IMG/VR virus record: IMGVR_UViG_3300020044_005158 | Coordinates: 1 to 63,828 of that record | Reading direction: 5' to 3' (one strand) | DNA: 63,828 nucleotides | Origin: a virus | Taxonomy: Duplodnaviria > Caudoviricetes | Part shown: piece by piece, positions 5,044 through 48,947 of the stretch | How positions within the stretch are numbered: position 1 is the first letter of the stretch | Layout: every line of letters starts with the position of its first letter | Program-made: the position numbers and the translations under genes | Notes under the pieces: model-generated | What the model saw: only the letters and a program-made list of their open reading frames with translations | What the model was told of the DNA's origin: nothing | The model's database searches: none

Positions 5044-8000
5044 ATGAACGAAAAAGCACTTCAAGACTCGTACAACATATTCAAAGCTCAGGGATACAAT
5101 AAATCTATTGAGGAGTATAAGACGTTATTAAAATCTAACGGAAACGCACTGAATGACTCTTATAAATTATTTAAGTCTAAGGGATATAATAAGTCTATTG
5201 ATGACTATAAAGTATTGATGGGAGTAAGTGGTGATCCTGTAAAAAAAAAAGAACCTACGGCATCAGTTTCTCCATCAGGTCAAAAACCTACTTCATCGGT
5301 TACTCCAGCCAAGAAGGCGCAACCGCAATCGGTATTTTTGCAAGACGCAGATACTGGAGGTAAGCTAGAAATACTTACTGGATATCCACAGAAAGAAGAT
5401 ATAGAATATAACTTTGCTAACGGTCAGTGGAGAAAAAGAAAACCCGGTCAAACATCTTGGTACAACATAACTAACGAGGGATCCATAAGTTCTCTTAATA
5501 AGTTCTTTAATAAAGAAAAGATTCCAGATAATAAAAAAAGTGTAGACCAGCAAGTAAGAGACCTTGAGGATTTAAGAGAGCTATCAGACCAAGAAACAGC
5601 TGATGCATTAGGGTGGTCATTAGAAGACCTTCAAAAAGCAAATAAAGGAACAAAGGTAAACAAGGTGAAAACTACAGGTGCTACTGTAGCTCCTAATATT
5701 ATCGAAGGAAAAGATGCTATATCAGTTCAAGCAAATAGCATAGCTAAGGCAAGAATAGAACTTGGCTCATCTGCAAATCAAGAAAAGATAAACGATAGAG
5801 CTAAATATCACGAAAATATAAATCTTCAGAAATATTTAAAGAACAAAGGGTTTGATGTAGATGTAAATGGAGATATCGAAAGTGATAAAACAAAGTCAGC
5901 TCTAGATAAGTTAAAGGCTATAGAAGAACTTAATGAAATAGAAGATGCAAACAGAAGTAAATTCATATCAAAAATAAATAGCGATATAACATCTGACATG
6001 TTATCTTCTCCTGAAAGTATTGATCAATTGAGATCAGAATTTTCTAAGAATGGATATGTATTTGAATCATTTGGTGGATCTATAGCTGGATTAGGAGTTG
6101 GATCTGGTAGGTATATAAAAGTAAAATATACCTTACCTGATGGTACAGAAACAAGAGAAGAGACATTCGATACATCTGATCCAGAAGCCAGTCGTAATAT
6201 GAGACTATTTATGTCTCAAACATTTATGAGTAAATCTGAAAAGGAGGCTATTATTGGAGGTGATGCACCTACTGACGAAATGGGAAGATTTGAGTATATG
6301 TCTTCTCTAGTCGGAAAAATGGCGGCTAATCCTAGTAAGTACGGAAGAACACTTGTATCTGATGAGTTTATTTCTAATCATATGAAAAGTACTTATCAGT
6401 ACTTGAAAGATGAACAAACAGGAATATCATTAGAATATGATAACTTAAAAAAGAGAATAGATCAATTTAAACTTAATCCTACAGAAGAAGAAAGACAGCT
6501 TATTAATAACAAAGTCCATGAAATATCTGTAAGGGAAATTAAGTTAAATGGACAATACGAAAAAGCCAAAGAAACTGAAAAGAATTTTTCTTCAATATCT
6601 GCAGCTTATGCAACTGAAATGGAGAAAAAGGGGGGATTTTTCACTGGATTAACAGCTCAATTTGCTAAGGGTGTTACTAGTATACCAAAAATGATGTTGA
6701 CCACGTCAGCAGATATACTTCCATATGTAGTAGATGCAGTAGATCCTATCACAAAGAATAGATTAAAAAATGATGGGTATTCAGATTCTGAAATAGCAGA
6801 CTATGCCTCAAAGGAACTAAAAAATACGGTTGTTAAAGAGATAGAGAAAGGAGTAGTAAACATAGGATCATTAGGTCAGACTACTGAAGAGTATTTACAG
6901 TCAGAAGATAGAGGTGTTTTAGAAAACACATTAGGATTTTTAGCTAATAGTATTGGGACTGGATTAAGTGGAGGCGGTAATGGCGCATTAACTAAACTTG
7001 CATTTTTTAGTCAGTCATATAATGGCATGTCAGATCAGATGACAGGACCTGAATTTGATAGGTTAACAGAGACAGAAAAGAAACTAATATCTGTACCTTA
7101 CGCATTGGTTATAGGTGGACTTGAAAGACTTGGATTTAAGTTTACAACGAGTACGAGTAAGAATCCTTTATTAAATAAACTAATAAATAATACTATAGCT
7201 AAGACATTTTCTGGCATACCAAAAGATGCATCAATACAAACAATTAATAGAGCTATATCGGAGAGTTTAACAGCTACTATGGCTCAAGCTGGACTAAGAG
7301 TAGTAGGTGGATCTATAGTAGAGGGAGCAGTAGAAGGCTCACAGCAATTAGCTGAGATATCTATAAAGAATATAGCTAACAGAATAATTGGAGAGGATGA
7401 GGATGGATTTGACTTTTTCAAAGATGTACCAGACATAACAACAGCTGAAGGAATTAAGGAAGCGTTAAAATTAGCGTCTGTAGATGCTGCATATGGCGCA
7501 CTAGGGGGTGCTATTATGTCAACTGGAGAAAATGCTGTCTCATCTATTAAAAATTATGGAATTAAGAAAGAACAAGAAAAAGATTTTTTAACGTTAAGAG
7601 CTACCCTTCTTGATGGTAATCTTAGAGCACTTCAAGATTTAGATATAGAAAGAAAATTATCTTATGGAGAGATCACTCAAGAAGAAGCGGATGAGATGAC
7701 CAACTCTATGAATAATGCTACATCAGCATTAGGAAAAATACCTGAGGGATTATCTACATCAAGAGCAAGAGAGTCTTTTGGTCTTTTGATTGAAAGAGAT
7801 AAATTAGAGCAAGAAGTTAAAGGTAAAGACGAAAACCTAGTTGTAGCTCAGAAGGAAAGAATTAAAGAAATTAATAACGAATTACAAACAATAAGCAAAG
7901 ATGCCGTTCAAGAGCAAGCAGCAGGTGAAGTTTCTGTACAGCCAGAAGCCACAACTAGCGAAGAAGTGGTCCAAGGAAAACCCAAATCAGGACCTGAAGT

Positions 8001-11000
8001 CGTTACCGAAGAAGGTAAAAAAGAAGAAGTAGATAAGAAAAAATCAGATAGAATATCAGAAATACAATCTATTTTAGCTAATGATGATGCTAAATTTGCT
8101 GAAGAAGGTCAAAGACCTTTACTGGCAGAGGCACGAGCTGAGTTAACATCTGAATTAGAAGGATTAAACCAAGAATCAACTACTAAAGCAGCTCCAGTTG
8201 CAGAAGTATTTGAATTTAATGGTAAAAAATACGAACTTACTAATGAGTCTGTAACAGATCTTGAAACAGGTAATCTTGTTCCAATTGAACTAGCTACACA
8301 AATTCGTGAAGAAGGAACTGTCGCAACCGAAGCTAACCAAGAACAGGTAGCAACCTTAAGAGCACAAGAGCAAGTAGAACTAGCTGAGGCTATACCTAAC
8401 ATAGACGAATATAAGGTTGATGGGAAGGTAGCCAAAAGTACTATGCCAGCTGATGTTTTGGCTAAGTATGAAGAGATATACGATAGGTATGACAAGCTAA
8501 TAACTCCTTTGTTAACTACTGCACAACCTATCACATCTAAAAATCAAGTCACTCTAGATAACTTCCAAGAATTAGAGAATCAAGCCGTACAGGAAGGAAA
8601 CGATACAAAGATAAAAACGCTTCGTGCTGCAAGAATGGTTGTAAAATCTCTTCCGGGAGTAAAGGTATTCATCCATAACTCACCTGAGGAGTACCAGCAG
8701 GCGTTAGCAGATGCATCTGGTGATTCCATTGATACTATCAAGTCAGAAGAAGCATCAGAGCGTTCATCCGGACAGTATGTAAATGGTGAGATACACGTTG
8801 ATGGAAGTATTGCAACAGAGCGTACAGTATACCATGAGGCATTCCATGATGCAATCCTAAAATCAGGACTGTCAGTAGAGATGGCTAAAGGGCTTCTTAA
8901 GATTATTTCAGACAAGAAAATCAAGTCTCAACTAGAGGCATTCATTAGTCAGTATGAGTCTAGTGAGCAGAATGAAGAAATGGTTGTTGAGCTTGGAGCT
9001 ATCATGGCTGAAGCAGGGACTGAATTGTCTACTACTAAACTTCAGCAGTTTAAGCAGTTAATAAATAAGTTAGCACAGAAGTTAGGACTTCCTGTAATGC
9101 TTCCAGCGTCAGCGGATCGTCAGCAGGTTGTTGACTTTATTAATACCATGTCGAAAGCAATTCGTACTGGACGTGCTGTTGATCTGAATATAAAAGGAGC
9201 AAAAGACAAGACAGGTATTACTGAAGAAATAAATCCAACTGCACCTGACACTGGTACAGGTGTTGATACATCATCATTAGAGAATAGAAAAAAATCTTTA
9301 ATACAAAACCTTGGGTTAGTAAGACAAAAAGAAATAACTCAAAGATTAAAGACTGGAATAAAATTATCAGATTTAGGAAGAGTAATATCTCACTTAACAT
9401 TCTCAGATAGACTTGTTACTGGAAAAGTTGGAGATAAAGATTATCTTGGAGGTATATTATTTGCAGCTGCAACTAATAGAGTATGGGCATCATTCTCTAA
9501 AGGAAGAGTTAGTTCTATAATAAATGGAATGCCTGTCAATAAGGATGGATATAGATATCTAATGCCAGCATTACTCACTGAACAATCTCACATGTCGAAT
9601 AAGGACATGATGAATACATCTCTTAAATTAGTAGAAGATGCTGTAATAAATGGAGATGTAGATTTTAACTCTGCTAACGACAGAATAAGAAAAGCATTAA
9701 ACAGAAAAGGACTAGAGAAGTATCTTGAAATATATAACAAATCTATTGGTGATAATATAACAGCTAAAAGTGTAAAGAATGCTATAGATGAGGCTATTGT
9801 AAATAGCGATAGTACATTTGAAAATAGAAAAACATTCTTAGAGGCATTACTTGGAAAGGCTGATATAGATCTAACTAAAAGATTTGGGAATCTTCCATCA
9901 TTTTCTGAATTAGCAAATGGACTTGCTGAACCAATAACAGAAGGACATGAATATGGTGATATACTTTTAGTTATAAGAACTAAGGGTAATCTTATTGCTG
10001 TTCAACCAAAAGAAGGAGATGCAGATTACCATCCATCTTATCCTTGGGTCATCAGATCAGTAGATGAAAATGGAGATATTTCTGATGTTGAAACATTAAT
10101 ATTTGATAAATCTTACAATGCTATAAATGTATTTCCTAAGGTAACAAATAAGATTGGTAAAACATTATCATACCAAGATTATGTTAACAAGTATGGAGAT
10201 AAAGCAAAATCAGCATATCTTGGATACATAGGAGGTAGATCAACTATGTCTACATCTTTGACTGAAGAAGTAAATATTGAAGCTGAACAAAAAGAAAAAG
10301 TAGCTGAAGTTTTTAAAGGCAGAAAGAAAAGAATGACTGAGCCAGTTGCTGGAAATAAATTATTCAATGAGCCACTTAGAGACGCGTCAGTTATTGCTAA
10401 AAAGTATTCAGAAAAGTCTGGAATAGAGTATGTTACTGTAGAAAAGATATCAAAGCTAGACGAGTCTAACTCTAAAGAAATTGCTGCTGAATATGATAAG
10501 ATGAAGAACGATCCTACCAATCCAGAGGTTAGGAAAGCATATGATGCAATGATAAAAGAGACTGCTGATCAGTATGAAGCAATACTGGATGGCGGTTATG
10601 TTGTTGAGGTTAATAATAATGAGCCATACTCTAGCTCTGAGGATATGATACAAGACCTTCGTGATAACAAGCGAATGAAAATATTCTCTACTGAATCTGG
10701 ATTTGGGGATGATCCAATTACTGACGAGCAAAGAGCAGAGAATCCATTACTACAAAAAACAAAGTACTCAGATGTAAATGGAATTCCATTACTAGCTAAT
10801 GATTTATTTAGATTTGTACATGACTTCTTTGGTCACGCAAAATTAGGAAATGGATTCGGACCTATTGGAGAGGAGAATGCATGGAGAGTTCATTCTGTTA
10901 TGTATTCAGATTTAGCTAGAAGAGCTATGACATCTGAGACTAGAGGTCAAAATAGTTGGGTTAATTTTAGTGGAGCAAATGACGCTGTATTTAAATTAAG

Positions 11001-14000
11001 AGATAAGGCTAGAGCTCTTCGTAAGGAAGGAAAGATAGATGAGGCAAATGAGTTGATTGGTCAAGTATATGACGAGATGCAGTTTGCTGAACAGAAGGTT
11101 GGACTTATGCCTGAGTGGGTGTCAGAGACTGCACCTCGTAAAAAGCAAAAGTCTGGTGGAAAGAAAGTAACTGCCCAAAAAGTAAATCAGTCGTTTAAGA
11201 ATCCTGTAAAGAAGGTGATTGTGAATGACCGTACTGCCTTAAGAAATCAACTAAGACTTGAGGCTAGGGCTGCTCGTGAGTCACAAATGGACTTAAAGCA
11301 GAAACAACGTGCATTAATTGTGGCTATCAATAAGATGAAGCGAGGTGGACTTATTACGGTAAATCAGGCATCTATACTTGCTAAAAGACTAGCGTTCGTT
11401 AATGTAGACAATCCAATAATGATCGAGAGATTTTTAGGATACGCTGATAAGTTATTTGCAGATGCTGAATATTCAGCTAAACTTAATTCTGCATTTGAGC
11501 TACAAAAAAAGATAAAGAGAGCTATAAAATCTGATAAGCTTCAAGCAAGTGTTGTAGCTACAGCGAAAGCATTTTCTAAATTGAATCCATCATTAGTTGA
11601 GGATATTGATACATACATTGAGAATGCTGAAAAGGTAATGAACGCAGTTAAGTCGTCTCGTGCAAACGTAAAAGATGGTGTAGATTTAGATAATATTATT
11701 AAAGGCAAAAAGGCAGATATTGCTATTGAATTAAAGACTGCAATGGACTTTAATGAGATTGGTGAGTACACAGATAAAGCTATTGAGTTAGAGAATGAGT
11801 ATAGAAAGAATGAACTAATGTCTATCTACAAGGACTTATCTGATGCAAATATTATCACTAAAGAAATGTCTATCGAAGAGATGAAGGAAGTGATTACGTC
11901 AGTTATGAATGAATCTAAGGATAAAATGCCAGCAGAAGAAAAGCTTGCATACATTATGTCTTGGCTTGGAAGTACTGCAAATGTATACCGTCCAATCATT
12001 AAATCAATGCTTAATGGACGAGATCCGTTTACAGGTGATGATGTAGTTCTTTCTGAGAAGCAGGATCAAATAATTCGTAACTTCCTAAAAATAGATGTCA
12101 CTAAGATGGATGTTCGTGAGGCAATGTTTGTAGTTGAGGCTATGGATAATTTCATTACAAATAAAATCACTGATGGACTTGAGACTGTAATAGCTAAATA
12201 TGAAGGAAACTTAGAAGCTAAGAAATTATCTGATTCAGGATTCAAGACTAGATCCATGAATACATTTGGAAATGAAAAGTCTAAGTTAGGTACTGGTAGG
12301 TTATGGGCGCAAGAGATGATGTCATTAAAGACATTGACTGACTTGGTATTTAGAGGTGTAAATAACGCTCAGAAAATAACTAAGGCAATGGGTCTTTCTG
12401 CATACGAGAATGGAGTAGCACTTGCAAATAGATTATGGAACAACAGCATTGATTCATACTATAACGAGTTCAAGAAGACAAAACCGAATGGAGAAAAGTT
12501 TATGTCAGCAAAAAATATATACGAAAGAGGTATGTATGCTGCACTTAAAAGAACTATTCCGGGAGATCAGAAAGTACAAGATGCTGAATTAAAAAGAAAG
12601 ATTAAGCTAATCAACGACAGTATTTCCACATTGATGAAAGGATCTGAAAGAGATCAAGATATTGCAAAGATGTACTCTGAGGTTGCTGAAAAACTTGGAA
12701 TAAACGAGTCTGGAGTTACAATGCTGGATATAGAGTCAAGAGTTGATTCAAACAATATGAAGGCTGTAGACTGGTGGGTTAGTAAATGGGCTGATAACTA
12801 TAGCGAACTAGCTGATGTAAGTCAGAACGTTTACAATACAATCCTTGATAGAGATATGTACTACACACCTGATAAGTTTTCTAGCACAAAGCCAGTAGAG
12901 AAGTCAGTAGAAGAAGTATTTGAATCAGGAGGTGCATTCGGACAGTTTTTAGATTATGAGTACGACAAGAAATCTGGTGTATTAATGCCTTCAGCAAAAC
13001 AATCATCAATGGCTGAAGGAAGATTCTTGGACCTTAATTTCGATATGAATAACTCAAAATCTTTGAAGGCTGCATTGGTTGACATGAAGACGGCTACATC
13101 CATTCGTAAAATCAGCGGATTCTTAAAGTCAAAGGACTGGGAGAAAGTGATGACGGCAAAAGAAGATAGAGATGTATTCAGAAAGAAGATTGATAACTAC
13201 ATACTTCGAAGCAGAAATAAATCAACTGGTGCAATCGATAATGATTACGCACAGGCATTAGATAAGGCTGGTAAGATTTGGGCATCAATGGGAGCTGCTA
13301 GAGCATTAGGTGGATTTACTCAGCCATTAAAGCAAACGATTCCAGTATTAATGAGTACAATCATTAACTCAGGAAGAGTTGATTTTGCTATAGGTAAGGA
13401 TCAGAATGATTGGATTAGTAAAATAGGTAGAGGGATATCAAACAGAGGGCTTGAATCTCAGGCTGGATTTGAGGATGCAAATAGAATGATGGATGATGCA
13501 GCAAATAGTGGTAACGCTGTAAAGATATTGGCTGCAATAGAAAAATCTAATAGGTTTGTTTTAAGAGCAGTTCTTGCGAAGCCTGACGTATTTATAGCTA
13601 GATCATCTTTCATATCTTACTACAAGCAGTATATGGCTAATAATGGGATGTCTGAGGATATTAATTACTCAAAGCCAGAAGATGCAAATCAAGATGCATT
13701 GGATTATGCTCAACGAATGATTGATCGTCAGCAGAACGTATCTGATGGAGATTTAGCTGGTGAATTTATGTCATCTAATAAACCATATAAAAAATTAGCT
13801 AAAAATATATTATTACCATTTGCTTCATTTGTGATTAATCAGAAGTCAAGAATGTTTACTGATTTCGCAACACTTATGGGTAAGGAGGTATCAAGTCAAG
13901 ATAGAGTATTAGCTATTAGATCATTAAGTGGATTAGCCGCTGAAATTGCTGTATTTAACGCTATAGCATTTGGTATAAAGGCAGGTGTAATTGCAATAGC

Positions 14001-14850
14001 TGGAGAAATAGTACCTCCAGCTCCAGAAGATGAAAAAGAAAAAGAAAAAGAATTATGGAAGCAGTGGGGGTATATTATTGGAAACGTAATTGCAAGTATT
14101 ATTTCTCCAGTTCCATTTACAGATAGTTCTGTAATATCATCTTCTGACTGGGTATATAAGCAGGTAAATAAAATTGCCAAAAGCTCTAGTGGTGAGACGA
14201 AAGAGGCTCTTAAGAAGCATAATGAGGAGAGAGAGTTAAATGGTCAGAGACCACTTGTAGGTAGAGAGGCTGATAGATGGATGGAGAATCATCAGGAAGA
14301 AGATCGATTTAAGATTCGTGCGTATACTAATGAAAACATGGCTGGTACGTATACCATTACATATAATAAATTAGTTGAACTTAAGAAATCATATAACCTA
14401 GCATTCAATGGTGAGTACGAGCAAGATATGTATGGTAAGGTCCAGAAGAAGTATATTCTAAAGGAAGATAGAGACGTTCTTAAATACATGTGGATTGGAA
14501 ATGCAATAACTAATATTGCAGGATTCCCGTCAGAGTATAGCTCTGTAAATAGAAGAGTTGAGAATAACGTCAAGAAGAAGAGTGCAATTTCAGAAAAGAA
14601 ATTTGATACATACAATGATGTTGTTAGCCACAAAGGAGGAGAATTAAATAAGGCAGAATTGTTCTTGGTAAAGAACATGGATGGAACTAAGTCTCAAAGT
14701 GGAACTGATCGTGTAATTGAAGAGATCGAGTGGATTAAAGAGAATGGAGGATTTGATAATGAACGTCAGATGGACAAGTACATTGAAATATATCAAAAGG
14801 AGAAGTCAGTTAGTTCGTCTGACATGTATGAGATTAAAAAAATAAAGTAA
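5044..14850 (+). CDS. Giant polyvalent virion/ejection protein (3268 aa) with zincin-like HExxH domain
   Basis: YHEAFH..EEMVVE motif; HDFFGH..GEENAW..SETRGQ domain; PG-binding-like LQKYL..GF..NG..T segment; tandem N-terminal repeat. Confidence 0.75.
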   Translation: MNEKALQDSYNIFKAQGYNKSIEEYKTLLKSNGNALNDSYKLFKSKGYNKSIDDYKVLMGVSGDPVKKKEPTASVSPSGQKPTSSVTPAKKAQPQSVFLQDADTGGKLEILTGYPQKEDIEYNFANGQWRKRKPGQTSWYNITNEGSISSLNKFFNKEKIPDNKKSVDQQVRDLEDLRELSDQETADALGWSLEDLQKANKGTKVNKVKTTGATVAPNIIEGKDAISVQANSIAKARIELGSSANQEKINDRAKYHENINLQKYLKNKGFDVDVNGDIESDKTKSALDKLKAIEELNEIEDANRSKFISKINSDITSDMLSSPESIDQLRSEFSKNGYVFESFGGSIAGLGVGSGRYIKVKYTLPDGTETREETFDTSDPEASRNMRLFMSQTFMSKSEKEAIIGGDAPTDEMGRFEYMSSLVGKMAANPSKYGRTLVSDEFISNHMKSTYQYLKDEQTGISLEYDNLKKRIDQFKLNPTEEERQLINNKVHEISVREIKLNGQYEKAKETEKNFSSISAAYATEMEKKGGFFTGLTAQFAKGVTSIPKMMLTTSADILPYVVDAVDPITKNRLKNDGYSDSEIADYASKELKNTVVKEIEKGVVNIGSLGQTTEEYLQSEDRGVLENTLGFLANSIGTGLSGGGNGALTKLAFFSQSYNGMSDQMTGPEFDRLTETEKKLISVPYALVIGGLERLGFKFTTSTSKNPLLNKLINNTIAKTFSGIPKDASIQTINRAISESLTATMAQAGLRVVGGSIVEGAVEGSQQLAEISIKNIANRIIGEDEDGFDFFKDVPDITTAEGIKEALKLASVDAAYGALGGAIMSTGENAVSSIKNYGIKKEQEKDFLTLRATLLDGNLRALQDLDIERKLSYGEITQEEADEMTNSMNNATSALGKIPEGLSTSRARESFGLLIERDKLEQEVKGKDENLVVAQKERIKEINNELQTISKDAVQEQAAGEVSVQPEATTSEEVVQGKPKSGPEVVTEEGKKEEVDKKKSDRISEIQSILANDDAKFAEEGQRPLLAEARAELTSELEGLNQESTTKAAPVAEVFEFNGKKYELTNESVTDLETGNLVPIELATQIREEGTVATEANQEQVATLRAQEQVELAEAIPNIDEYKVDGKVAKSTMPADVLAKYEEIYDRYDKLITPLLTTAQPITSKNQVTLDNFQELENQAVQEGNDTKIKTLRAARMVVKSLPGVKVFIHNSPEEYQQALADASGDSIDTIKSEEASERSSGQYVNGEIHVDGSIATERTVYHEAFHDAILKSGLSVEMAKGLLKIISDKKIKSQLEAFISQYESSEQNEEMVVELGAIMAEAGTELSTTKLQQFKQLINKLAQKLGLPVMLPASADRQQVVDFINTMSKAIRTGRAVDLNIKGAKDKTGITEEINPTAPDTGTGVDTSSLENRKKSLIQNLGLVRQKEITQRLKTGIKLSDLGRVISHLTFSDRLVTGKVGDKDYLGGILFAAATNRVWASFSKGRVSSIINGMPVNKDGYRYLMPALLTEQSHMSNKDMMNTSLKLVEDAVINGDVDFNSANDRIRKALNRKGLEKYLEIYNKSIGDNITAKSVKNAIDEAIVNSDSTFENRKTFLEALLGKADIDLTKRFGNLPSFSELANGLAEPITEGHEYGDILLVIRTKGNLIAVQPKEGDADYHPSYPWVIRSVDENGDISDVETLIFDKSYNAINVFPKVTNKIGKTLSYQDYVNKYGDKAKSAYLGYIGGRSTMSTSLTEEVNIEAEQKEKVAEVFKGRKKRMTEPVAGNKLFNEPLRDASVIAKKYSEKSGIEYVTVEKISKLDESNSKEIAAEYDKMKNDPTNPEVRKAYDAMIKETADQYEAILDGGYVVEVNNNEPYSSSEDMIQDLRDNKRMKIFSTESGFGDDPITDEQRAENPLLQKTKYSDVNGIPLLANDLFRFVHDFFGHAKLGNGFGPIGEENAWRVHSVMYSDLARRAMTSETRGQNSWVNFSGANDAVFKLRDKARALRKEGKIDEANELIGQVYDEMQFAEQKVGLMPEWVSETAPRKKQKSGGKKVTAQKVNQSFKNPVKKVIVNDRTALRNQLRLEARAARESQMDLKQKQRALIVAINKMKRGGLITVNQASILAKRLAFVNVDNPIMIERFLGYADKLFADAEYSAKLNSAFELQKKIKRAIKSDKLQASVVATAKAFSKLNPSLVEDIDTYIENAEKVMNAVKSSRANVKDGVDLDNIIKGKKADIAIELKTAMDFNEIGEYTDKAIELENEYRKNELMSIYKDLSDANIITKEMSIEEMKEVITSVMNESKDKMPAEEKLAYIMSWLGSTANVYRPIIKSMLNGRDPFTGDDVVLSEKQDQIIRNFLKIDVTKMDVREAMFVVEAMDNFITNKITDGLETVIAKYEGNLEAKKLSDSGFKTRSMNTFGNEKSKLGTGRLWAQEMMSLKTLTDLVFRGVNNAQKITKAMGLSAYENGVALANRLWNNSIDSYYNEFKKTKPNGEKFMSAKNIYERGMYAALKRTIPGDQKVQDAELKRKIKLINDSISTLMKGSERDQDIAKMYSEVAEKLGINESGVTMLDIESRVDSNNMKAVDWWVSKWADNYSELADVSQNVYNTILDRDMYYTPDKFSSTKPVEKSVEEVFESGGAFGQFLDYEYDKKSGVLMPSAKQSSMAEGRFLDLNFDMNNSKSLKAALVDMKTATSIRKISGFLKSKDWEKVMTAKEDRDVFRKKIDNYILRSRNKSTGAIDNDYAQALDKAGKIWASMGAARALGGFTQPLKQTIPVLMSTIINSGRVDFAIGKDQNDWISKIGRGISNRGLESQAGFEDANRMMDDAANSGNAVKILAAIEKSNRFVLRAVLAKPDVFIARSSFISYYKQYMANNGMSEDINYSKPEDANQDALDYAQRMIDRQQNVSDGDLAGEFMSSNKPYKKLAKNILLPFASFVINQKSRMFTDFATLMGKEVSSQDRVLAIRSLSGLAAEIAVFNAIAFGIKAGVIAIAGEIVPPAPEDEKEKEKELWKQWGYIIGNVIASIISPVPFTDSSVISSSDWVYKQVNKIAKSSSGETKEALKKHNEERELNGQRPLVGREADRWMENHQEEDRFKIRAYTNENMAGTYTITYNKLVELKKSYNLAFNGEYEQDMYGKVQKKYILKEDRDVLKYMWIGNAITNIAGFPSEYSSVNRRVENNVKKKSAISEKKFDTYNDVVSHKGGELNKAELFLVKNMDGTKSQSGTDRVIEEIEWIKENGGFDNERQMDKYIEIYQKEKSVSSSDMYEIKKIK
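7901..8032 (+). CDS. Nested small basic protein MPFKSKQQVKFLYSQKPQLAKKW... (43 aa), +1 frame inside the giant gene
   Basis: ATG after A-rich leader, TAG at 8030-8032; resembles the widespread phage MPFKS..Q..L....P..A..W small proteins. Confidence 0.7.
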   Translation: MPFKSKQQVKFLYSQKPQLAKKWSKENPNQDLKSLPKKVKKKK

Positions 14851-27766: not shown

Positions 27767-27926
27767 ACCTTTCTGATTATATAACTAAATGCTGGAATGA
27801 CTACCACTAGACCAAATCCATAAAACGCTGAGTACTGAAATGAATACATGATGCCTGAAATAACTGCAATATTCATTAGCAGAACTATAATTAAGTACTT
27901 TACCATATCAATTAGTTTTAAATTAG

Positions 27927-27997
27927 TAGTCAGGACAGGAATCGAACCTGTATACTCCGGCTTAAAAGGTCGGGCTTTACCATTAAGCCACCTGACT
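27927..27997 (-). tRNA. tRNA-Lys(TTT)-like, atypical
   Basis: AGTCAGG/CCTGACT acceptor, GCTT/AAGC D-stem, CTTTTAA anticodon loop, ACAGG-TTCGATT-CCTGT T-arm; no encoded CCA. Confidence 0.7.
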
Positions 27998-33584: not shown

Positions 33585-33612
33585 AATTTCTAGGTTTTAA
33601 ATATTTACGTTT

Positions 33613-33661
33613 GCTTTTCATCCTTTAGGAATCATCAGTCAGCATACACATGCTGAGAAGC
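33613..33661 (-). ncRNA. Type III hammerhead ribozyme
   Basis: Minus strand GCUU-C-UCAGCA-UGUGUA-UGCUGA-CUGAUGA-UUCC-UAAA-GGAU-GAAAAGC: full core and three stems. Confidence 0.8.
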
Positions 33662-33856
33662 GAGGGAATTGGCTTAGACTTTTCAGCCCCGTTCCCTCAT
33701 TCGGACGTCTTAAATGATTTCTTGTTTCAATGGTATATTGTCGAAAGTATAGAGAAACAATAAGGTCTATACTACCAAGGCTTTCCACCTCTAGTCAAAC
33801 CATGTAAGGAACTATTTTACTGACTATATTTTGTTTGTTGCCTATCTCATCAACCG

Positions 33857-33873
33857 ATATGTGTAAAGAACTT
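33857..33873 (-). promoter_or_regulatory. boxA-like antitermination motif AAGTTCTTTACACATAT
   Basis: Resembles boxA (GyTCTTTaACA) within the early leader. Confidence 0.4.
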
Positions 33874-34062
33874 ATTAATTGTATTCGTATTGTATTCTTG
33901 ACTGAGTTACTCACTACTCATTAAGACTGTGCTTGTACCATGCCTTAACTCTTCGTACTTCTCTCACCTCATGTAGCATACTGATTCATCATCGTAACAT
34001 CTGAAAGGCTTGTCATTTGTAAGCTAAGTAAAAGTGAGAACGTTTTCCCGACTTGCTTGAAA

Positions 34063-34094
34063 CAAATCTACTACAACTGTTTTGATTACACAAG
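34063..34094 (-). promoter_or_regulatory. Early promoter (-7 TAGATTTG, -33 CTTG, 20-nt spacer)
   Basis: Bacteroidota promoter geometry at the head of the leftward arm. Confidence 0.6.
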
Positions 34095-34130
34095 TTATTA
34101 TGTTAAATAGAACGAAAATAATTGCATAAA

Positions 34131-34184
34131 TTCGACGAATGACCTAATTCCTTCGACGAATGATAGGAATTCTTCGACGAATGA
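34131..34184. repeat. Three TTCGACGAATGA direct repeats, 21-bp period
   Basis: Copies start at 34131, 34152 and 34173. Confidence 0.85.
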
Positions 34185-34445
34185 TTAAAACGATTTAACA
34201 TCATTACTTAAGTCATTGAGAATGAATGAATTAACTCCCCTTACGCGTGCGCGTGTATATGTGCAGGATTTAATTAACGGGAGAATGGGGGATTGGTGTG
34301 GCTATTCAAACAGTCAGCAAGTACGAACGCATGCAAAAGTATCAGGCAAGATAACGCCAAATGAATGGATTGAATTGGATCCGGCAGACAGGCAGAAAGA
34401 ATGCATGACAGCATAAACGCTTGGGCATCAGCGCATTAGCAATGA

Positions 34446-34473
34446 CTGTCTTATAATATACATTATGTTAAAT
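34446..34473 (+). other. dif-like XerC/XerD recombination site
   Basis: CTGTCTTATAA-TATACA-TTATGTTAAAT: 11-6-11 layout, perfect XerD arm. Confidence 0.8.
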
Positions 34474-34762
34474 AGAACATGAATTGATGCGTAACGGTAT
34501 GGATGTCAGGCAGTTATACTGTATGACTTAAAGTAATACATCAAGCCTCAACACATGCATAACATAGGCAACATGTAGGTACATGCATCAGCGCATAGCT
34601 AGTGTACGTAAGGCATGCAGACAAAAAGGTAAAAAGTTAGGACGAAAGTCTGAAAACAAGCACCCCCCCATGCCGATTTTGGACGCTTTCCTTTCGCCCG
34701 GGCGCGCGTGAAATGTATATATAACGTAAACTCTCCGCACGTGCAATAACTCAAAAATTCTT

Positions 34763-35072
34763 TCTGACGTCAAATGTTAAAAAATGACGTAAAACTGACG
34801 ATACTGACGAATTACTGACGAAGTGCCCCTTCTGTAACCCTTGATTTTGCTGGATTCCTGACGGTACTGACGATTACTCTCCTATTAAGATTTCTTTAAA
34901 TAAAAAATAAGGTAAATAGTATATATATTATTAGAATATAATAGGGGACCACTTCGTCAGTATCGTCAGAAACTCAGTAAAACTGGGCATCTTGAAAATC
35001 CGTATCGTCAGTTTTTCGAGTTTTACGTCAGTCATTGATACTTTTACGTCAGGAATCGTCATTTATCGTCAG
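34763..35072. repeat. Iteron-like element B: TGACG x7, AT-rich core, CGTCA x7 (candidate replication origin)
   Basis: Same architecture as 29041-29257; core is its reverse complement. Confidence 0.7.
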
Positions 35073-35116
35073 TTTGCGAAAGTGTGATCGGCTCCGCTTC
35101 GTTAGAGATAATTCAT

Positions 35117-35124
35117 TATCTTTG
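35117..35124 (+). promoter_or_regulatory. First rightward -7 box TATCTTTG (TAnnTTTG also at 35310, 36530, 37200, 39618, 39780, 42867, 45414, 52471, 55874, 56482)
   Basis: Recurrent TAnnTTTG just upstream of + strand genes. Confidence 0.7.
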
Positions 35125-35147
35125 CGGTATAATTAAAACATTAGATC

Positions 35148-35303: not shown

Positions 35304-35346
35304 TTTACTTATCTTTGCACCTGTATATACATTAAAAAAATAAATC

Positions 35347-37223: not shown

Positions 37224-38810
37224 ATGATAGTCAAAAAAGTACATTTAGGTGATTCTGGACAGGAGAAACTAAAGAAAGGAATCAGAATATTAACGGAGGC
37301 GGTTGCTTCTACGATGGGTCCGGGAGGTCGTCCAGTAATTATGGAGTCCGAGCACCATGTAGGAGGCAAGACGATCACAAAGGACGGTGTGTCTGTAGCC
37401 AAGGCGGTGAATGTGTTTGATGCGACCGAGCAGTTGGGCATCACGATAGCAAGGGAGGCATCAGTACAGACGGCTACGGCAGCTGGCGACGGAACCACTA
37501 CAGCTTTGGTGATACTACAAGGAATGCTAGATGCAGCGGATGCACACCTTACTGACAAGCATAACGTCACTCAGGTAGTTCGTCACATCCACACGCTGAC
37601 GGACGATGCGATTAAGTTTCTAGACAAGAAGTCCAAGAAGGTAACGAAGAAGAAGTTAGATCAGGTGGCAACTATTTCTGCCAATAACGACCCGGAGCTA
37701 GGAAAAATGATCTCCGATTTGTTTGGGAAGGTTAAGATTGTAACTGCCGAGATTGGAAAGCAGCCGTTCGTTACTACGGAGATTATTGACGGGATGAAGT
37801 TCGACCGTGGATACGCGAACGAGTACTTCATCACGGACCAAGAGCGTGAGGTAGCGGAGCTAGATAATCCGTTGATTCTCTTGACTGACATGACGATCGA
37901 GAAGCTGGGTGGACACCTTGAGTCTATACTGGGTCCAATCATCCGTGAGAACAGGTCGTTACTAATCATTGGCAACATGTCTGATCAGGCTCGTGCGACA
38001 CTAGCGGCTAACAAGATGAAGGGGGTAATCAAGGCGGTTAACGTGATCCCACCAAACTTTGGATACCGTCAGAAGGAGATGATGAAGGACTTGGAGGTAG
38101 TTCTTGGGGCGAAGTACTACTCGGAGGAGACTGGAGACGGACTTCACAACATTACGCTAGACGGACTAGGTACAGCGAAGAAGGTAATTATATCGGCAGA
38201 CAGGACAGTTATCTACCGTTCAGATGAAATAGATCAGGAGCCACTAAACAATCGCTTAGAGGAGCTTAAAAGCAAGATGGCGTCCGACAAGACGTTAGCC
38301 GAGAAGAAAGACACCGAGTCAAGGATAGCAAACATTGAGGGAGGAGTTGGTATTGTGCATGTAGGTGCGCCATCAGAGATTGAGACGAAGGAGTTATATG
38401 ACCGAGTTGACGATGCTGTGCGTGCTGTAAGTGCAGCCATTCAGGATGGAATACTTCCGGGTGGAGGTGCAGCTCTGATGTATTACACTCAGAGAGGACC
38501 AGTACAGACGGATGAGAACAAGTCAGTTGCTGAGAGCATTTTTTATACTGCACTAGCGGCTCCATTCAATCGAATCATGCTAAATGCTGGGCTTCATCCA
38601 AGTGAGATACGTTCAAACATAATGGAGGTCGGTGACTTCGGGTACGGGTTCGACGTGAAGAACGAGAAGTACGGGATGATGGAGAAGATGGGAGTGATTG
38701 ATCCTACGATGGTAACGAAGAGCGCACTGAAGAATGCGGTATCTGTAGCCACTACGATCATGTCAAGCCAAGTAGCAATTGTAAATATGAGAGAGAATGA
38801 GAGCTTATAA
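37224..38810 (+). CDS. groEL: Phage chaperonin GroEL
   Basis: ITKDGVSVAK, GDGTTT, GMKFDRGY, RVDDA, PGGG, GVIDP. Confidence 0.95.
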   Translation: MIVKKVHLGDSGQEKLKKGIRILTEAVASTMGPGGRPVIMESEHHVGGKTITKDGVSVAKAVNVFDATEQLGITIAREASVQTATAAGDGTTTALVILQGMLDAADAHLTDKHNVTQVVRHIHTLTDDAIKFLDKKSKKVTKKKLDQVATISANNDPELGKMISDLFGKVKIVTAEIGKQPFVTTEIIDGMKFDRGYANEYFITDQEREVAELDNPLILLTDMTIEKLGGHLESILGPIIRENRSLLIIGNMSDQARATLAANKMKGVIKAVNVIPPNFGYRQKEMMKDLEVVLGAKYYSEETGDGLHNITLDGLGTAKKVIISADRTVIYRSDEIDQEPLNNRLEELKSKMASDKTLAEKKDTESRIANIEGGVGIVHVGAPSEIETKELYDRVDDAVRAVSAAIQDGILPGGGAALMYYTQRGPVQTDENKSVAESIFYTALAAPFNRIMLNAGLHPSEIRSNIMEVGDFGYGFDVKNEKYGMMEKMGVIDPTMVTKSALKNAVSVATTIMSSQVAIVNMRENESL

Positions 38811-39057
38811 TAAGTTTATACTGTGTGAGAAAGTAAGCGAGACCCTGACAATGAAGTCGGGGCTTCAGCTTACGGAGACGGACATGGAGGAGATCCGTTA
38901 CCAGAGAGCGAAGGTTGTTGAGCAGCCGGGTAATCTAGTTGAGGGAATAAAGCTTGGTGACGAGATTTATTATGACAAGGTATACGGTCACGAGGTGGTC
39001 TTTAATGGGAAGACTTACACGATAGTAAATGAGAACAACGTAGCAGCTGTAATATGA
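38797..39057 (+). CDS. groES: Co-chaperonin GroES
   Basis: KSGL, AKVV, GDEIYY..YG.EV; adjacent to groEL. Confidence 0.8.
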   Translation: MRAYNKFILCEKVSETLTMKSGLQLTETDMEEIRYQRAKVVEQPGNLVEGIKLGDEIYYDKVYGHEVVFNGKTYTIVNENNVAAVI

Positions 39058-46498: not shown

Positions 46499-46749
46499 AC
46501 GCAGGAATGATTGCGGTTAACGAGCTGATTAAAGTTCTAAAGGACCCAATCATTACTGGAATGGATGGAGACCTTACGGCTGATAAGATGCGAACGGCAG
46601 CAGCGGCTAAGAGACTTGCATTTGAGGATGCGCTCGTTATCTTAGATAAGATTGAGGGAGAGCAGCCAAGTGCTGACCAAGCAGAGATTGCTAAGAAGAT
46701 GGAGCAGATACCTGTATCTTTCGCTGAAGATAAAGCCAAGAAGAAATGA
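46471..46749 (+). CDS. Putative terminase small subunit
   Basis: Directly upstream of and overlapping TerL; AAAAKRLAFEDA. Confidence 0.45.
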   Translation: MSSKRTEILDAGMIAVNELIKVLKDPIITGMDGDLTADKMRTAAAAKRLAFEDALVILDKIEGEQPSADQAEIAKKMEQIPVSFAEDKAKKK

Positions 46750-48947
46750 GTTTGTACGCAGTACTTGATGATTATCTACCAAGTCAGGTTAAGAACCGGA
46801 AGTGGAAGTATGGATACGACGAGAAGTATGACTTGGTTGTAATATCCAAGGACGGTACTGTAGGTGAGGTTTATGAAATTAATGGCGTAAAGGTAGGTCT
46901 TCCAAAAGTCCAAAAGGGATTAAAGAAGGGAGAGAATAAATGGAAGCCAGAAGAGTATCCAAAAGAACTTTCTAGAATCAAGACGATATTTGAATGGAAT
47001 CAAATGTCTCCTGAGTTCAAGGTTAAGTGGGTGGACTACATTCAGGCTGAATTTGAGAAGAGGGATGACGGGCATTGGTTTGTCAATAACGGATCTCCTA
47101 CATACATTACGGGAAGCCACTATATGTACCTGCAGTGGTCCAAGATAGATATCGGACTTCCAGACTTCCGTGAGTCCAACCGTATCTTCTGGATATTTTG
47201 GGAGGCATGCAAGGCTGATGACAGATGCTTTGGTATGTGCTACCTTAAGAACAGACGTTCTGGATTCTCATTCATGTCTTCATCAGAGACGTCAAACATT
47301 GGTACTATATCGATGGATGCGAAGCTAGGGATACTATCGAAGACAGGTCCTGATGCTAAGGAGATGTTCATACATAAGGTAGTTCCAATTGTAAGAAACT
47401 ATCCATTCTTTTTCAAGCCAGTACAGGACGGTATGGACGCACCAAAGTCAGAGCTATCGTTCAGACTTCCTGCAAAAAAGATTACAAAGAAAAACATGGC
47501 TGAGAAGGACGAAGAGTCCATCACAGGTCTAGATACTACAATTGACTGGTTAAGCACGGCAGACAACTCCTATGATGGTCAGAAACTGCTTATGTTAGTA
47601 CACGATGAGTCTGGGAAATGGCTCGCACCGAATAACATCCTAAATAACTGGCGTGTAACTAAGACATGTCTTCGTTTGGGTAGTAGGATAGTTGGTAAGT
47701 GTATGATGGGATCAACCGTTAATGCACTAGCAAAGGGAGGTCAGAACTTCAAGGACTTATACTATGACAGCGACCCAAAGAGAAGAAATAATAACGGTCA
47801 GACAAAGAGTGGTTTATACTCATTGTTTATACCAATGGACTACAACTTCGAGGGATTCCTTGACGAGTACGGTCATGCTGTGATAGAGGACCCAGCAAAG
47901 CCAGTGATGGGTATAGATGATCGTCCAATAAAGATTGGGGTTGTGTCATACTGGAACAATGAGGTTGAGGCACTGAAGCATGACCCTGACGCGTTGAATG
48001 AATTCTATCGTCAGTACCCACGTACAGAATCGCATGCGTTCAGGGATGAATCAAAGCAGTCTCTATATAACCTGACAAAGATTTACCAACAGATAGATCA
48101 CAACGATAACTTAATACGTGACAGAGTAATTACTCGTGGACAGTTTCACTGGAAGGGTGGGGTTATAGACAGTGAGGTTGTATGGAGTCCAGATCCGAGG
48201 GGTAGGTTCATCATGGCATGGGTTCCACCGAAAGAGCTTCAGAATAATGTGATTGTGAAGAACGGGAAGAAGTATCCGGGTAACGCTGACGATGGCGCAT
48301 TTGGATGTGACCCGTATGACATATCTGGAGTTGTTGGTGGAGGTGGATCAAACGGTGCACTTCATGGGCTTACTGGTTCAAGTATGGACCCAAATATTCC
48401 ATCAAACATGTTCTTCTTGGAGTACATAGCCAGACCTGCAACTGCTGAGATATTCTTTGAGGATGTACTCATGGCTTGTGTGTTTTATGGCATGCCGTTA
48501 CTAGCGGAGAACAATAAGCCAAGACTACTGTACCACTTCAAGAATAGGGGGTATAGAGGATTCTCTATGAATAGACCTGACAGGACTATAGCACAACTAT
48601 CAAAAACTGAAATAGAACTTGGAGGAATACCAAACTCTTCTGAGGATATAAGACAAACACACGCAGCTGGAATTGAGTCATACATAGAGCAATACGTTGG
48701 ATTTGATAACGAGGGAGAGTACCGTAATCCTGATAGTATTGGTAACATGTATTTCAATAGAACGCTTGAGGATTGGGCTAGATTCGATCCAAACAATCGT
48801 ACAAAGCATGATGCCTCTATATCTTCAGGTCTTGCAATAATGGGAGTGAGACGACATACATTCCGTGTAGAAACTAAGAAGTCCAAAATTTCCGTATCTT
48901 TGTCGAGGTACAAGAATGACGGACATAGCAGTCAAATAATAAGATGA
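46746..48947 (+). CDS. terL: Terminase large subunit
   Basis: KNRRSGFS, HDESGKW, GCDPYD, AENN, HDASISSG. Confidence 0.9.
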   Translation: MSLYAVLDDYLPSQVKNRKWKYGYDEKYDLVVISKDGTVGEVYEINGVKVGLPKVQKGLKKGENKWKPEEYPKELSRIKTIFEWNQMSPEFKVKWVDYIQAEFEKRDDGHWFVNNGSPTYITGSHYMYLQWSKIDIGLPDFRESNRIFWIFWEACKADDRCFGMCYLKNRRSGFSFMSSSETSNIGTISMDAKLGILSKTGPDAKEMFIHKVVPIVRNYPFFFKPVQDGMDAPKSELSFRLPAKKITKKNMAEKDEESITGLDTTIDWLSTADNSYDGQKLLMLVHDESGKWLAPNNILNNWRVTKTCLRLGSRIVGKCMMGSTVNALAKGGQNFKDLYYDSDPKRRNNNGQTKSGLYSLFIPMDYNFEGFLDEYGHAVIEDPAKPVMGIDDRPIKIGVVSYWNNEVEALKHDPDALNEFYRQYPRTESHAFRDESKQSLYNLTKIYQQIDHNDNLIRDRVITRGQFHWKGGVIDSEVVWSPDPRGRFIMAWVPPKELQNNVIVKNGKKYPGNADDGAFGCDPYDISGVVGGGGSNGALHGLTGSSMDPNIPSNMFFLEYIARPATAEIFFEDVLMACVFYGMPLLAENNKPRLLYHFKNRGYRGFSMNRPDRTIAQLSKTEIELGGIPNSSEDIRQTHAAGIESYIEQYVGFDNEGEYRNPDSIGNMYFNRTLEDWARFDPNNRTKHDASISSGLAIMGVRRHTFRVETKKSKISVSLSRYKNDGHSSQIIR

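Follow-up and report, generated by a model that had tools for sequence, protein, structure and literature searches.

In this study, we show that a freshwater tailed phage of Bacteroidota carries, in the gene-free region between its divergent gene blocks, a 28-bp site which, judged by its sequence, is a mimic of the dif site of Bacteroidota host chromosomes beyond what chance would give, and that no recombinase gene is recognised in the phage genome. We consider it probable that this site is a substrate of the Xer system and that the phage exploits XerC and XerD of its host. The stretch of DNA analysed, hereafter the window, takes in all 63828 bp of a virus record (Caudoviricetes), representing a complete genome and corresponding to the ~64-kb phage of the original prediction. 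The 121-bp overlap between the ends of the record falls within an ORF, which indicates that the record is an assembly circle and has no true terminal repeat. A location of the site within a terminal repeat, or cyclisation through such a repeat, was considered and rejected, as the overlaps found (121 and 127 bp) are assembly artefacts that lie elsewhere.

The gene-free strand-switch region spans positions 33585-35147 of the ORF map (~1.5 kb, assigned to neither strand) and contains the cumulative GC-skew minimum near 34 kb. To its left lie minus-strand replication genes (a primase/helicase-like protein, a helicase and exonucleases), and to its right the plus-strand genes for GroEL, GroES, terminase, portal and virion proteins, the site being ~12.3 kb upstream of the terminase gene. 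The phage GroEL (phrog_5725, E 6e-119) and Cpn10/GroES (PF00166) are encoded at 37224-39057 (+), and GroEL is a good family marker for this phage group. The rightward gene block ends with a 3268-aa ORF (5044-14850, +), a homologous giant "structural protein" being annotated in MW202828.1 and in an Elemovirus record, and the early region holds a single tRNA-Lys(UUU) gene (27926-27997, -).

The 28-mer, CTGTCTTATAA-TATACA-TTATGTTAAAT, lies at positions 34446-34473 on the plus strand, exactly where it had been predicted in the noncoding strand-switch region, and has an 11-6-11 layout. Its left, XerC-type arm CTGTCTTATAA (34446-34456, +) agrees at 10 of 11 positions with the Bacteroidota chromosomal consensus (T)TGTC[C/T]TATAA, the first base being C and not T; the 6-bp central region TATACA (34457-34462, +) differs from the common chromosomal spacers TTAATA and TTTATA; and the right, XerD-type arm TTATGTTAAAT (34463-34473, +) is shared, base for base, with E. 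coli K12 dif and with the chromosomal sites of Bacteroidota. The claimed identity with the E. coli arm holds against the K12 dif right arm in the table of PMC2731167, and the right arm of the Vibrio dif motif displayed in PMC12715192 is likewise identical. Immediately 3' of the right arm stands an AGAAC tail (34474-34478, +), and AGAA is found at the same place in Bacteroidota chromosomal sites, and the description of the site as a canonical dif was borne out insofar as it closely resembles the dif of the host phylum. The core that characterises dif-type sites, that is, two 11-bp arms, a 6-bp centre and a conserved right arm, is thus present in full. At up to 3 mismatches, the 28-mer is single copy in the window and matches none of 100 dinucleotide shuffles. 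The 11-nt right arm by itself is weak evidence: allowing one mismatch, it has 6 matches in the window against 4.09 expected, and 6 were reached in 20 of 100 shuffles. Only two exact copies of this arm exist in the window, 365 bp apart, both in the gene-free region and both within a repeated 17-mer, ATTATGTTAAATAGAAC.

The comparison with host chromosomes was made by scanning 185,579 species genomes for TGTCNTATAA-N6-TTATGTTAAAT, in which the spacer and one arm base were left free. At least 120 contigs matched, with one site each; Bacteroidota of many orders accounted for 72 of 80 among the match titles listed, and among these matches the pattern was found almost only in Bacteroidota chromosomes. 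Outside the constrained positions, the base before the left arm was T in 90 of 120 chromosomal sites, and the right arm was followed by A in 95 and then by G in 89, again among the matches listed; the spacers of the same sites were mostly TTAATA (61/120) or TTTATA (32/120), giving the consensus TT[A/T]ATA. In all five genomes that were checked, there was exactly one site at up to 1 mismatch, weaker matches being at control counts, and the GC skew passed from plus to minus at the site in four of the five, with a clean shift in G004 and G005 and a weak one in G007 and G008; the fifth, the MAG G006, has an irregular four-phase skew without a shift at the site. Kono et al. (PMC3025954) give a dif prediction for each of 19 Bacteroidetes, and for 14 of these it has the proteobacterial profile. 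The phage site and chromosomal dif of Bacteroidota are therefore alike in layout, right arm, left-arm consensus, AGAA tail and single copy per replicon. They differ in that the phage spacer is not of host type and in that the phage site adjoins the cumulative GC-skew minimum, the strand switch and origin- or operator-like repeats, and not a replication terminus. The GC skew of phages mainly tracks transcription, and the skew minimum consequently says little about a terminus.

The dif of Bacteroidota is not uniform. Of 401 sampled genomes, 31 have the inner left arm and the right arm with any spacer between them, and ~25 of the 32 matches carry dif-type spacers. When up to 2 mismatches were allowed, 37 of 121 genomes matched, many of them with the right arms TTATGTAAAGT, TTATGTAAAAT or TTATGTTAAGT, and a frequent form, TGTCGTATAA-TATATA-TTATGTAAAGT, occurred in 7 of the 121 sampled genomes, with one further case carrying TGTCATATAA. 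These several right-arm variants indicate that Bacteroidota dif has subtypes, and consequently the arms of the phage site point to a subset of Bacteroidota, those with the dif right arm TTATGTTAAAT, and to no single species. The suggestion that the XerC arm and spacer could identify the host therefore stood as far as this subset, and no species could be named from them. The window's spacer agrees with TTTATA at positions 1, 3, 4 and 6 only; it agrees at five of six positions with the rare TATATA, the spacer of two chromosomes, from which it differs at position 5, and it does not identify a host species.

The site is conserved in part of the phage group while the DNA around it is not. A relative whose GroEL is 57% identical (L007) carries CTGTCCTATAA-TTAGTA-TTATGTTAAAT-AGA 2.9 kb upstream of GroEL, with the arms kept and four of six spacer bases changed, and the right arm is identical in five relatives found through GroEL alone (L007, L256, L257, L260 and L263). 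A scan of viral sequences with TATAA-N6-TTATGTTAAATAG gave at least 120 loci, of which 118 sites were analysed; among these matches, T-G-T-C recurs at the left-arm positions that the pattern left free, and the spacer ends in A in 115 of 118. About 15 of the 118 loci belong to GroEL-bearing relatives of the window (tblastn; GroEL 47-51% identical), with the site 1.2-2.9 kb upstream of GroEL. Across 17 clade members, T, G and T at the free left-arm positions 2-4 recur in 17, 16 and 16, the last spacer base in all 17, and A at the third and fourth tail positions in 16 and 13, while the flanks are unalignable and at background conservation (5-11 of 17). Among relatives, the right arm does not vary and the outer left arm is kept loosely; the short iterated motifs flanking the site are lineage-specific and change between relatives while the arms stay. 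Each of eight site-bearing records checked has one site. No ORF adjoining the site is conserved across the clade, and the 232-aa gene that neighbours it in the window has two near-identical relatives only. In a shuffled control, there were 3 matches in 753 kb, at 4 mismatches only, against at most 1 mismatch for the real matches.

The distribution of the site in this phage group, for which more than 8000 terminase candidates were found, is patchy. A GroEL-based sample comprised 80 loci, of which 44 had at least 3 kb upstream; four of the 44 have the site, all with GroEL at least 47% identical, which is four of the five loci in that identity class, and none of the 39 loci with GroEL below 47% has it. 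In a terminase-based sample of 15 records, 4 have the site; of the 7 records with a completeness of 90% or more, 2 do. It is missing from the close complete relatives MW202828.1 (the closest GenBank genome, terminase 65% identical), NC_055853.1, G786, G788, G789 and G790, which indicates that it is dispensable; a cultured Flavobacterium Elemovirus is among the genomes that lack it. Absence from relatives, an outcome that had been named in advance as speaking against the prediction, was thus seen in half: several close complete relatives lack the site and others conserve it. In a quick, unrooted terminase tree (FastTree; local supports 0.87-1.0), the site-bearing genomes fall into two clades with complete site-less genomes between them, and the site points toward GroEL in the clade of the window (5 loci) and away from it in the other (12 loci). 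Taken together, the separation of the two clades by site-less genomes and the opposite orientations mean that the site is optional; it was possibly gained twice, or else gained once and then lost and inverted. An orientation that differs between lineages is also more readily expected of a self-contained recombination site than of a promoter element.

Several further observations were made in the course of these searches. Megablast of window positions 30-40 kb against GenBank phages returned nothing, and short blastn hits of a 61-mer against the same phages (E 0.04 to 5) were too weak to use. In 66 Rheinheimera phage (vB_RspM_Barba) records, 22 nt covering the inner left arm, the spacer and the right arm match the site at 95%, at E 2 only, which is a lead and not a finding. 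The contigs of L002, L003/L006, L008 and L009 start or end between a few hundred bases and 3 kb from the site region, probably because strain variation and repeats break the assembly there. Some homologues of the window's terminase (46746-48947), namely P0019, P0111 and P0114-P0116, are 1065-1074 aa long with Hom_end/LAGLIDADG domains (PF05204, PF05203 and PF14528), and these long forms probably carry inteins.

The absence of a recombinase gene, as originally predicted, was upheld by a six-frame profile search of the whole window, in which the tyrosine recombinase (PF00589), serine recombinase (PF00239) and rve transposase (PF00665) profiles each gave no match at E<=1. PF00589 likewise found nothing in five site-bearing relatives, of which four have a completeness of at least 99%. 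The likeness to dif, the conservation in relatives and the lack of a tyrosine recombinase in the phage and these five relatives make use of host XerC/XerD the natural reading, and with no phage recombinase any crossover at the site would be made by host enzymes. The window therefore combines the two features by which an IMEX is recognised, a dif-like attP and no self-encoded recombinase. XafT, which we take to be the DUF3653-domain Xer activation factor of the TLCphi class, has no counterpart at E<=1 in the window (PF12375), and a factor of this kind is not needed in all IMEX classes. Family scans of 50 ORFs recognised no repressor, partition, plasmid-maintenance or other lysogeny or persistence gene.

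The spacer offers a clue to the reaction. Among distinct sites with a TGTC arm, a host-type spacer is present in 1 of 21 viral and 14 of 37 chromosomal sites, chromosomal spacers being near uniform and phage spacers diverse. Agreement with the host consensus T-T-W-A-T-A at positions 1-6 is 15, 16, 19, 5, 9 and 21 of 21 in the viral sites, against 36, 27, 33, 28, 30 and 32 of 37 in the chromosomal ones. At the level of the group, phage spacers are thus host-like at positions 1-3 and 6, whereas positions 4-5, on the XerD side, are free to vary or deliberately unlike the host. In plasmid cer and psi, whose spacers are unlike that of host dif, the exchange is XerC-first and FtsK-independent. In VGJphi, as the reaction is set out in PMC4246890, attP has no homology on the XerD side, so that XerC alone exchanges strands and replication completes the process. 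Since VGJphi and cer/psi are both XerC-first, the pattern indicates a pathway and not a partner, and what it suggests for the phage is a reaction that would be FtsK-independent and XerC-first.

As to the partner, we place first, tentatively and at somewhat less than even confidence, a host-Xer site that acts on the phage's own free DNA; it is ranked first because no integrated form was found in fairly large samples. Host XerC and XerD would bind the two arms of the 28-mer, only the exchange on the XerC side would matter, and the usual crossover would pair the phage site with another copy of itself, so that it would serve non-integrated phage DNA. Dimers, multimers and cointegrates arising from circular replication could in this way be reduced to monomers, or terminally redundant DNA could be closed, and the private spacer would keep the host XerD/FtsK pathway from fusing the phage with the chromosome; the rarity of host-type spacers is counted in favour of this reading. 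Plasmid cer (ColE1) and psi (pSC101) offer a parallel in that they are host-Xer core sites on extrachromosomal replicons. However, these have conserved accessory sequences, and the phage core has none in 17 relatives and comes without plasmid relatives or maintenance genes. The loxP/Cre system of phage P1, a single site in a tailed phage that cyclises and resolves the phage's own DNA, is an analogy only, as P1 encodes its own recombinase and this phage encodes none. Several other points count against action on the phage's own DNA, among them the dispensability of the site, its VGJphi-like spacer asymmetry and the occurrence of the same site type on microvirus-size contigs. Concatemers are normal packaging substrates, which makes the benefit of multimer resolution in a lytic cycle doubtful.

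No relative of the phage was found among 72,556 plasmid records (PLSDB), and no recombination product has been seen, both of which also weigh against this reading. Parts of the region were recovered as assembled contigs from lake, freshwater, estuary and other runs of 15 studies, and among these contigs, which cannot show rare junctions, there was neither a dimer junction nor any other recombination product. A depth peak at 34414-34514 in four of four runs, together with a contig matching 34442-34477 only, was attributed to co-occurring related phages that share the site, the flanks of the contig being like those of L118, L089 and L114. A loose end before 34094 would complete the half-site there into a full site; it may belong to the site of another phage and was not counted as a junction.

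A second reading, which we regard as somewhat unlikely, is lysogeny without an integrase, after the manner of an IMEX of the VGJphi type. The double-stranded phage circle would pair with host dif, XerC would exchange one strand pair where the spacers agree (positions 1-3), and replication would resolve the junction, leaving a 64-kb prophage at dif in a reversible and rare event. The dif-like attP without an own recombinase is what such an element should have, and the divergence of the spacer adjoins the XerD arm, as it does in the VGJphi attP of the filamentous vibriophages in the description of PMC4246890, which is also a single double-stranded dif-like site, host-like by the XerC arm, in a phage with no recombinase. 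The chromosomes G528 and G710 have a site that, apart from spacer position 5 and the outer left arm, is the same as in the window, the AGAAC tail included. Moreover, the same site type is found on 4-8-kb viral contigs, of microvirus size, and integration at dif-like sites is published, in the accounts given of them, for microviruses of Bacteroidota as proviruses flanked by such sites (PMC3091885) and for PhiCjT23-like Flavobacterium prophages (PMC9719478). The likeness to the latter two groups lies in the host phylum and the borrowed XerC/XerD, by description and not by site sequence; as described in these sources, they are small ssDNA phages found as proviruses between two sites, whereas the present phage, which has a tail and 64 kb of dsDNA, has been seen as free genomes only, and in contrast to the VGJphi case no integrated form turned up in the samples searched.

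The idea that the phage integrates at host dif, which was part of the original prediction, gained no support from the genomes. The exact 28-mer is in none of the 185,579 species genomes, and the 120 bacterial dif loci of 8 kb (among the matches listed) contain no window-like genes. Among 401 Flavobacteriales genomes, two have terminase relatives, and these are confined to three contigs (59.7, 8.6 and 4.1 kb) that lack the site; among 401 genomes sampled across the phylum there are none, so that this sample of 802 Bacteroidota genomes contained no integrated relative. In one of the Flavobacteriales assemblies, the 59.7-kb contig (G078:C65; L392-L394) is separate, encodes a terminase 69% identical with four in-frame stops, and has no dif-like site. 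Contigs of relatives stop at phage size: among the best 120 terminase clusters (at least 74% identical), the longest contig is at most 68.2 kb in 118, the other two, at 97.6 and 118.7 kb, being ones that could favour integration; 80 of 80 metagenome contigs are at most 63.5 kb and 80 of 80 from IMG/VR at most 64.3 kb. The 80 terminase-centred metagenome loci stop short of the site and have no bearing on its presence, and in the loci with a flank long enough (L032, L073, L114 and L126) phage genes stand on both sides of the site. The lack of a recognised repressor or XafT-like factor points the same way, and the cultured relatives, which are phage records of Flavobacterium, Cellulophaga, Tenacibaculum and Maribacter, show no sign of lysogeny in two annotation tables.

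The control region in which the site stands is rich in repeats. Three repeats spaced by 21 bp, with the core TTCGACGAATGA (34131-34191, +; repeat families D1 and D4), are iteron- or operator-like and are kept in L002. A CTGACG/CGTCAG repeat array, inverted around an AT-rich centre (34764-35075, assigned to neither strand; arms 34845-34873 and 34954-34982; repeats I1-I7, D5, D10, D12, D14 and D16), looks like an origin or operator array, and Rfam hairpin matches below threshold fall over 34836-34991 within it. A TATCTTTG box of the form TAnnTTTG, presumably the Bacteroidota -7 promoter consensus, precedes the first rightward ORFs (35117-35124, +; repeat family D17), with a second copy at 35310-35317. 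Rfam gave no family at gathering score in 33585-35147, and sigma-70-type promoters and terminators were at chance level only in the region. At its left edge (33610-33664, -), there is a Hammerhead_3 match below threshold (29.7 bits against a gathering score of 48.5, E 0.0009). A 42-bp segment (34088-34129) that holds the half-site is replaced by an unrelated segment of ~31 bp in L002 and in contigs of run X3, a small allelic swap beside the repeats.

This setting brings in a third reading, which we judge unlikely, namely that the site docks XerC/XerD, or FtsK via XerD, in a control or origin region without recombining, with possible effects such as DNA bending, the timing of replication or of early transcription, or the diversion of Xer from the host chromosome. 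It would explain why the site is always within an iteron-rich control region between divergent gene blocks, why the right arm is invariant and the outer left arm loose, and how close relatives can dispense with it. It would also give a role to the extra right-arm half-sites nearby: the second ATTATGTTAAATAGAAC copy, an exact repeat (34097-34113, +; arm 34098-34108) with no ATAA left arm at the proper distance, and an inverted right-arm-like 11-mer with one mismatch, TGATGTTAAAT (34193-34203, -; inverted repeats I5 and I21). However, the half-site at 34098-34108 is absent even from L002, at 92% identity; the 11-6-11 geometry is preserved, as are spacer positions 1-3 and the last spacer base, which binding alone would not require; and the orientation flips between lineages while the neighbouring genes stay. 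Furthermore, no TAnnTTTG box abuts the full site, the nearest being 105 bp to its left and 644 bp to its right.

That a phage-encoded protein binds the 28-mer, its likeness to dif being coincidental or only ancestral, is in our view very unlikely. Few of the small ORFs around the region could be assigned to a family, and the lineage-specific iterons show that phage DNA-binding proteins act there. Nevertheless, the host chromosomal site, AGAA tail included, has precisely the letters that are conserved, and the arms of the 28-mer do not follow the iterons in changing between relatives, nor is there an ORF by the site that is conserved across the clade. Chance, or a functionless relic of host DNA, is extremely improbable: by itself, the right arm is no rarity in AT-rich DNA, but the full site is not produced by shuffling and is kept across relatives with unalignable flanks, and their differing flanks and spacers argue against recent transfer of one segment.

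The literature searched contained no paper on dif-like sites in tailed phages, the Xer-exploiting phages there being small and non-tailed (filamentous phages, microviruses and double-jelly-roll phages), and PMC12715192, where it deals with IMEXs, treats them as non-tailed. Our results suggest that two freshwater tailed-phage lineages may each have taken up host dif and may use host XerC/XerD, XerC first, without a recombinase of their own. In its boldest form, which we hold as a doubtful possibility, they would be the first tailed-phage IMEXs, with reversible, integrase-free lysogeny at dif. The phage group concerned is large, tailed, lytic-looking and very common. As a by-product, the analysis has provided a working dif consensus for Bacteroidota with its subtypes, and if a group such as this one keeps a mimic of host dif, the arms of the site would offer a sequence-level clue to the hosts of uncultured phages. 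If the proposed use of host enzymes is correct, tailed phages would be able to carry out site-specific recombination without encoding a recombinase, and in the prediction of phage lifestyle the lack of an integrase would no longer mean that a phage can neither integrate nor resolve its DNA.
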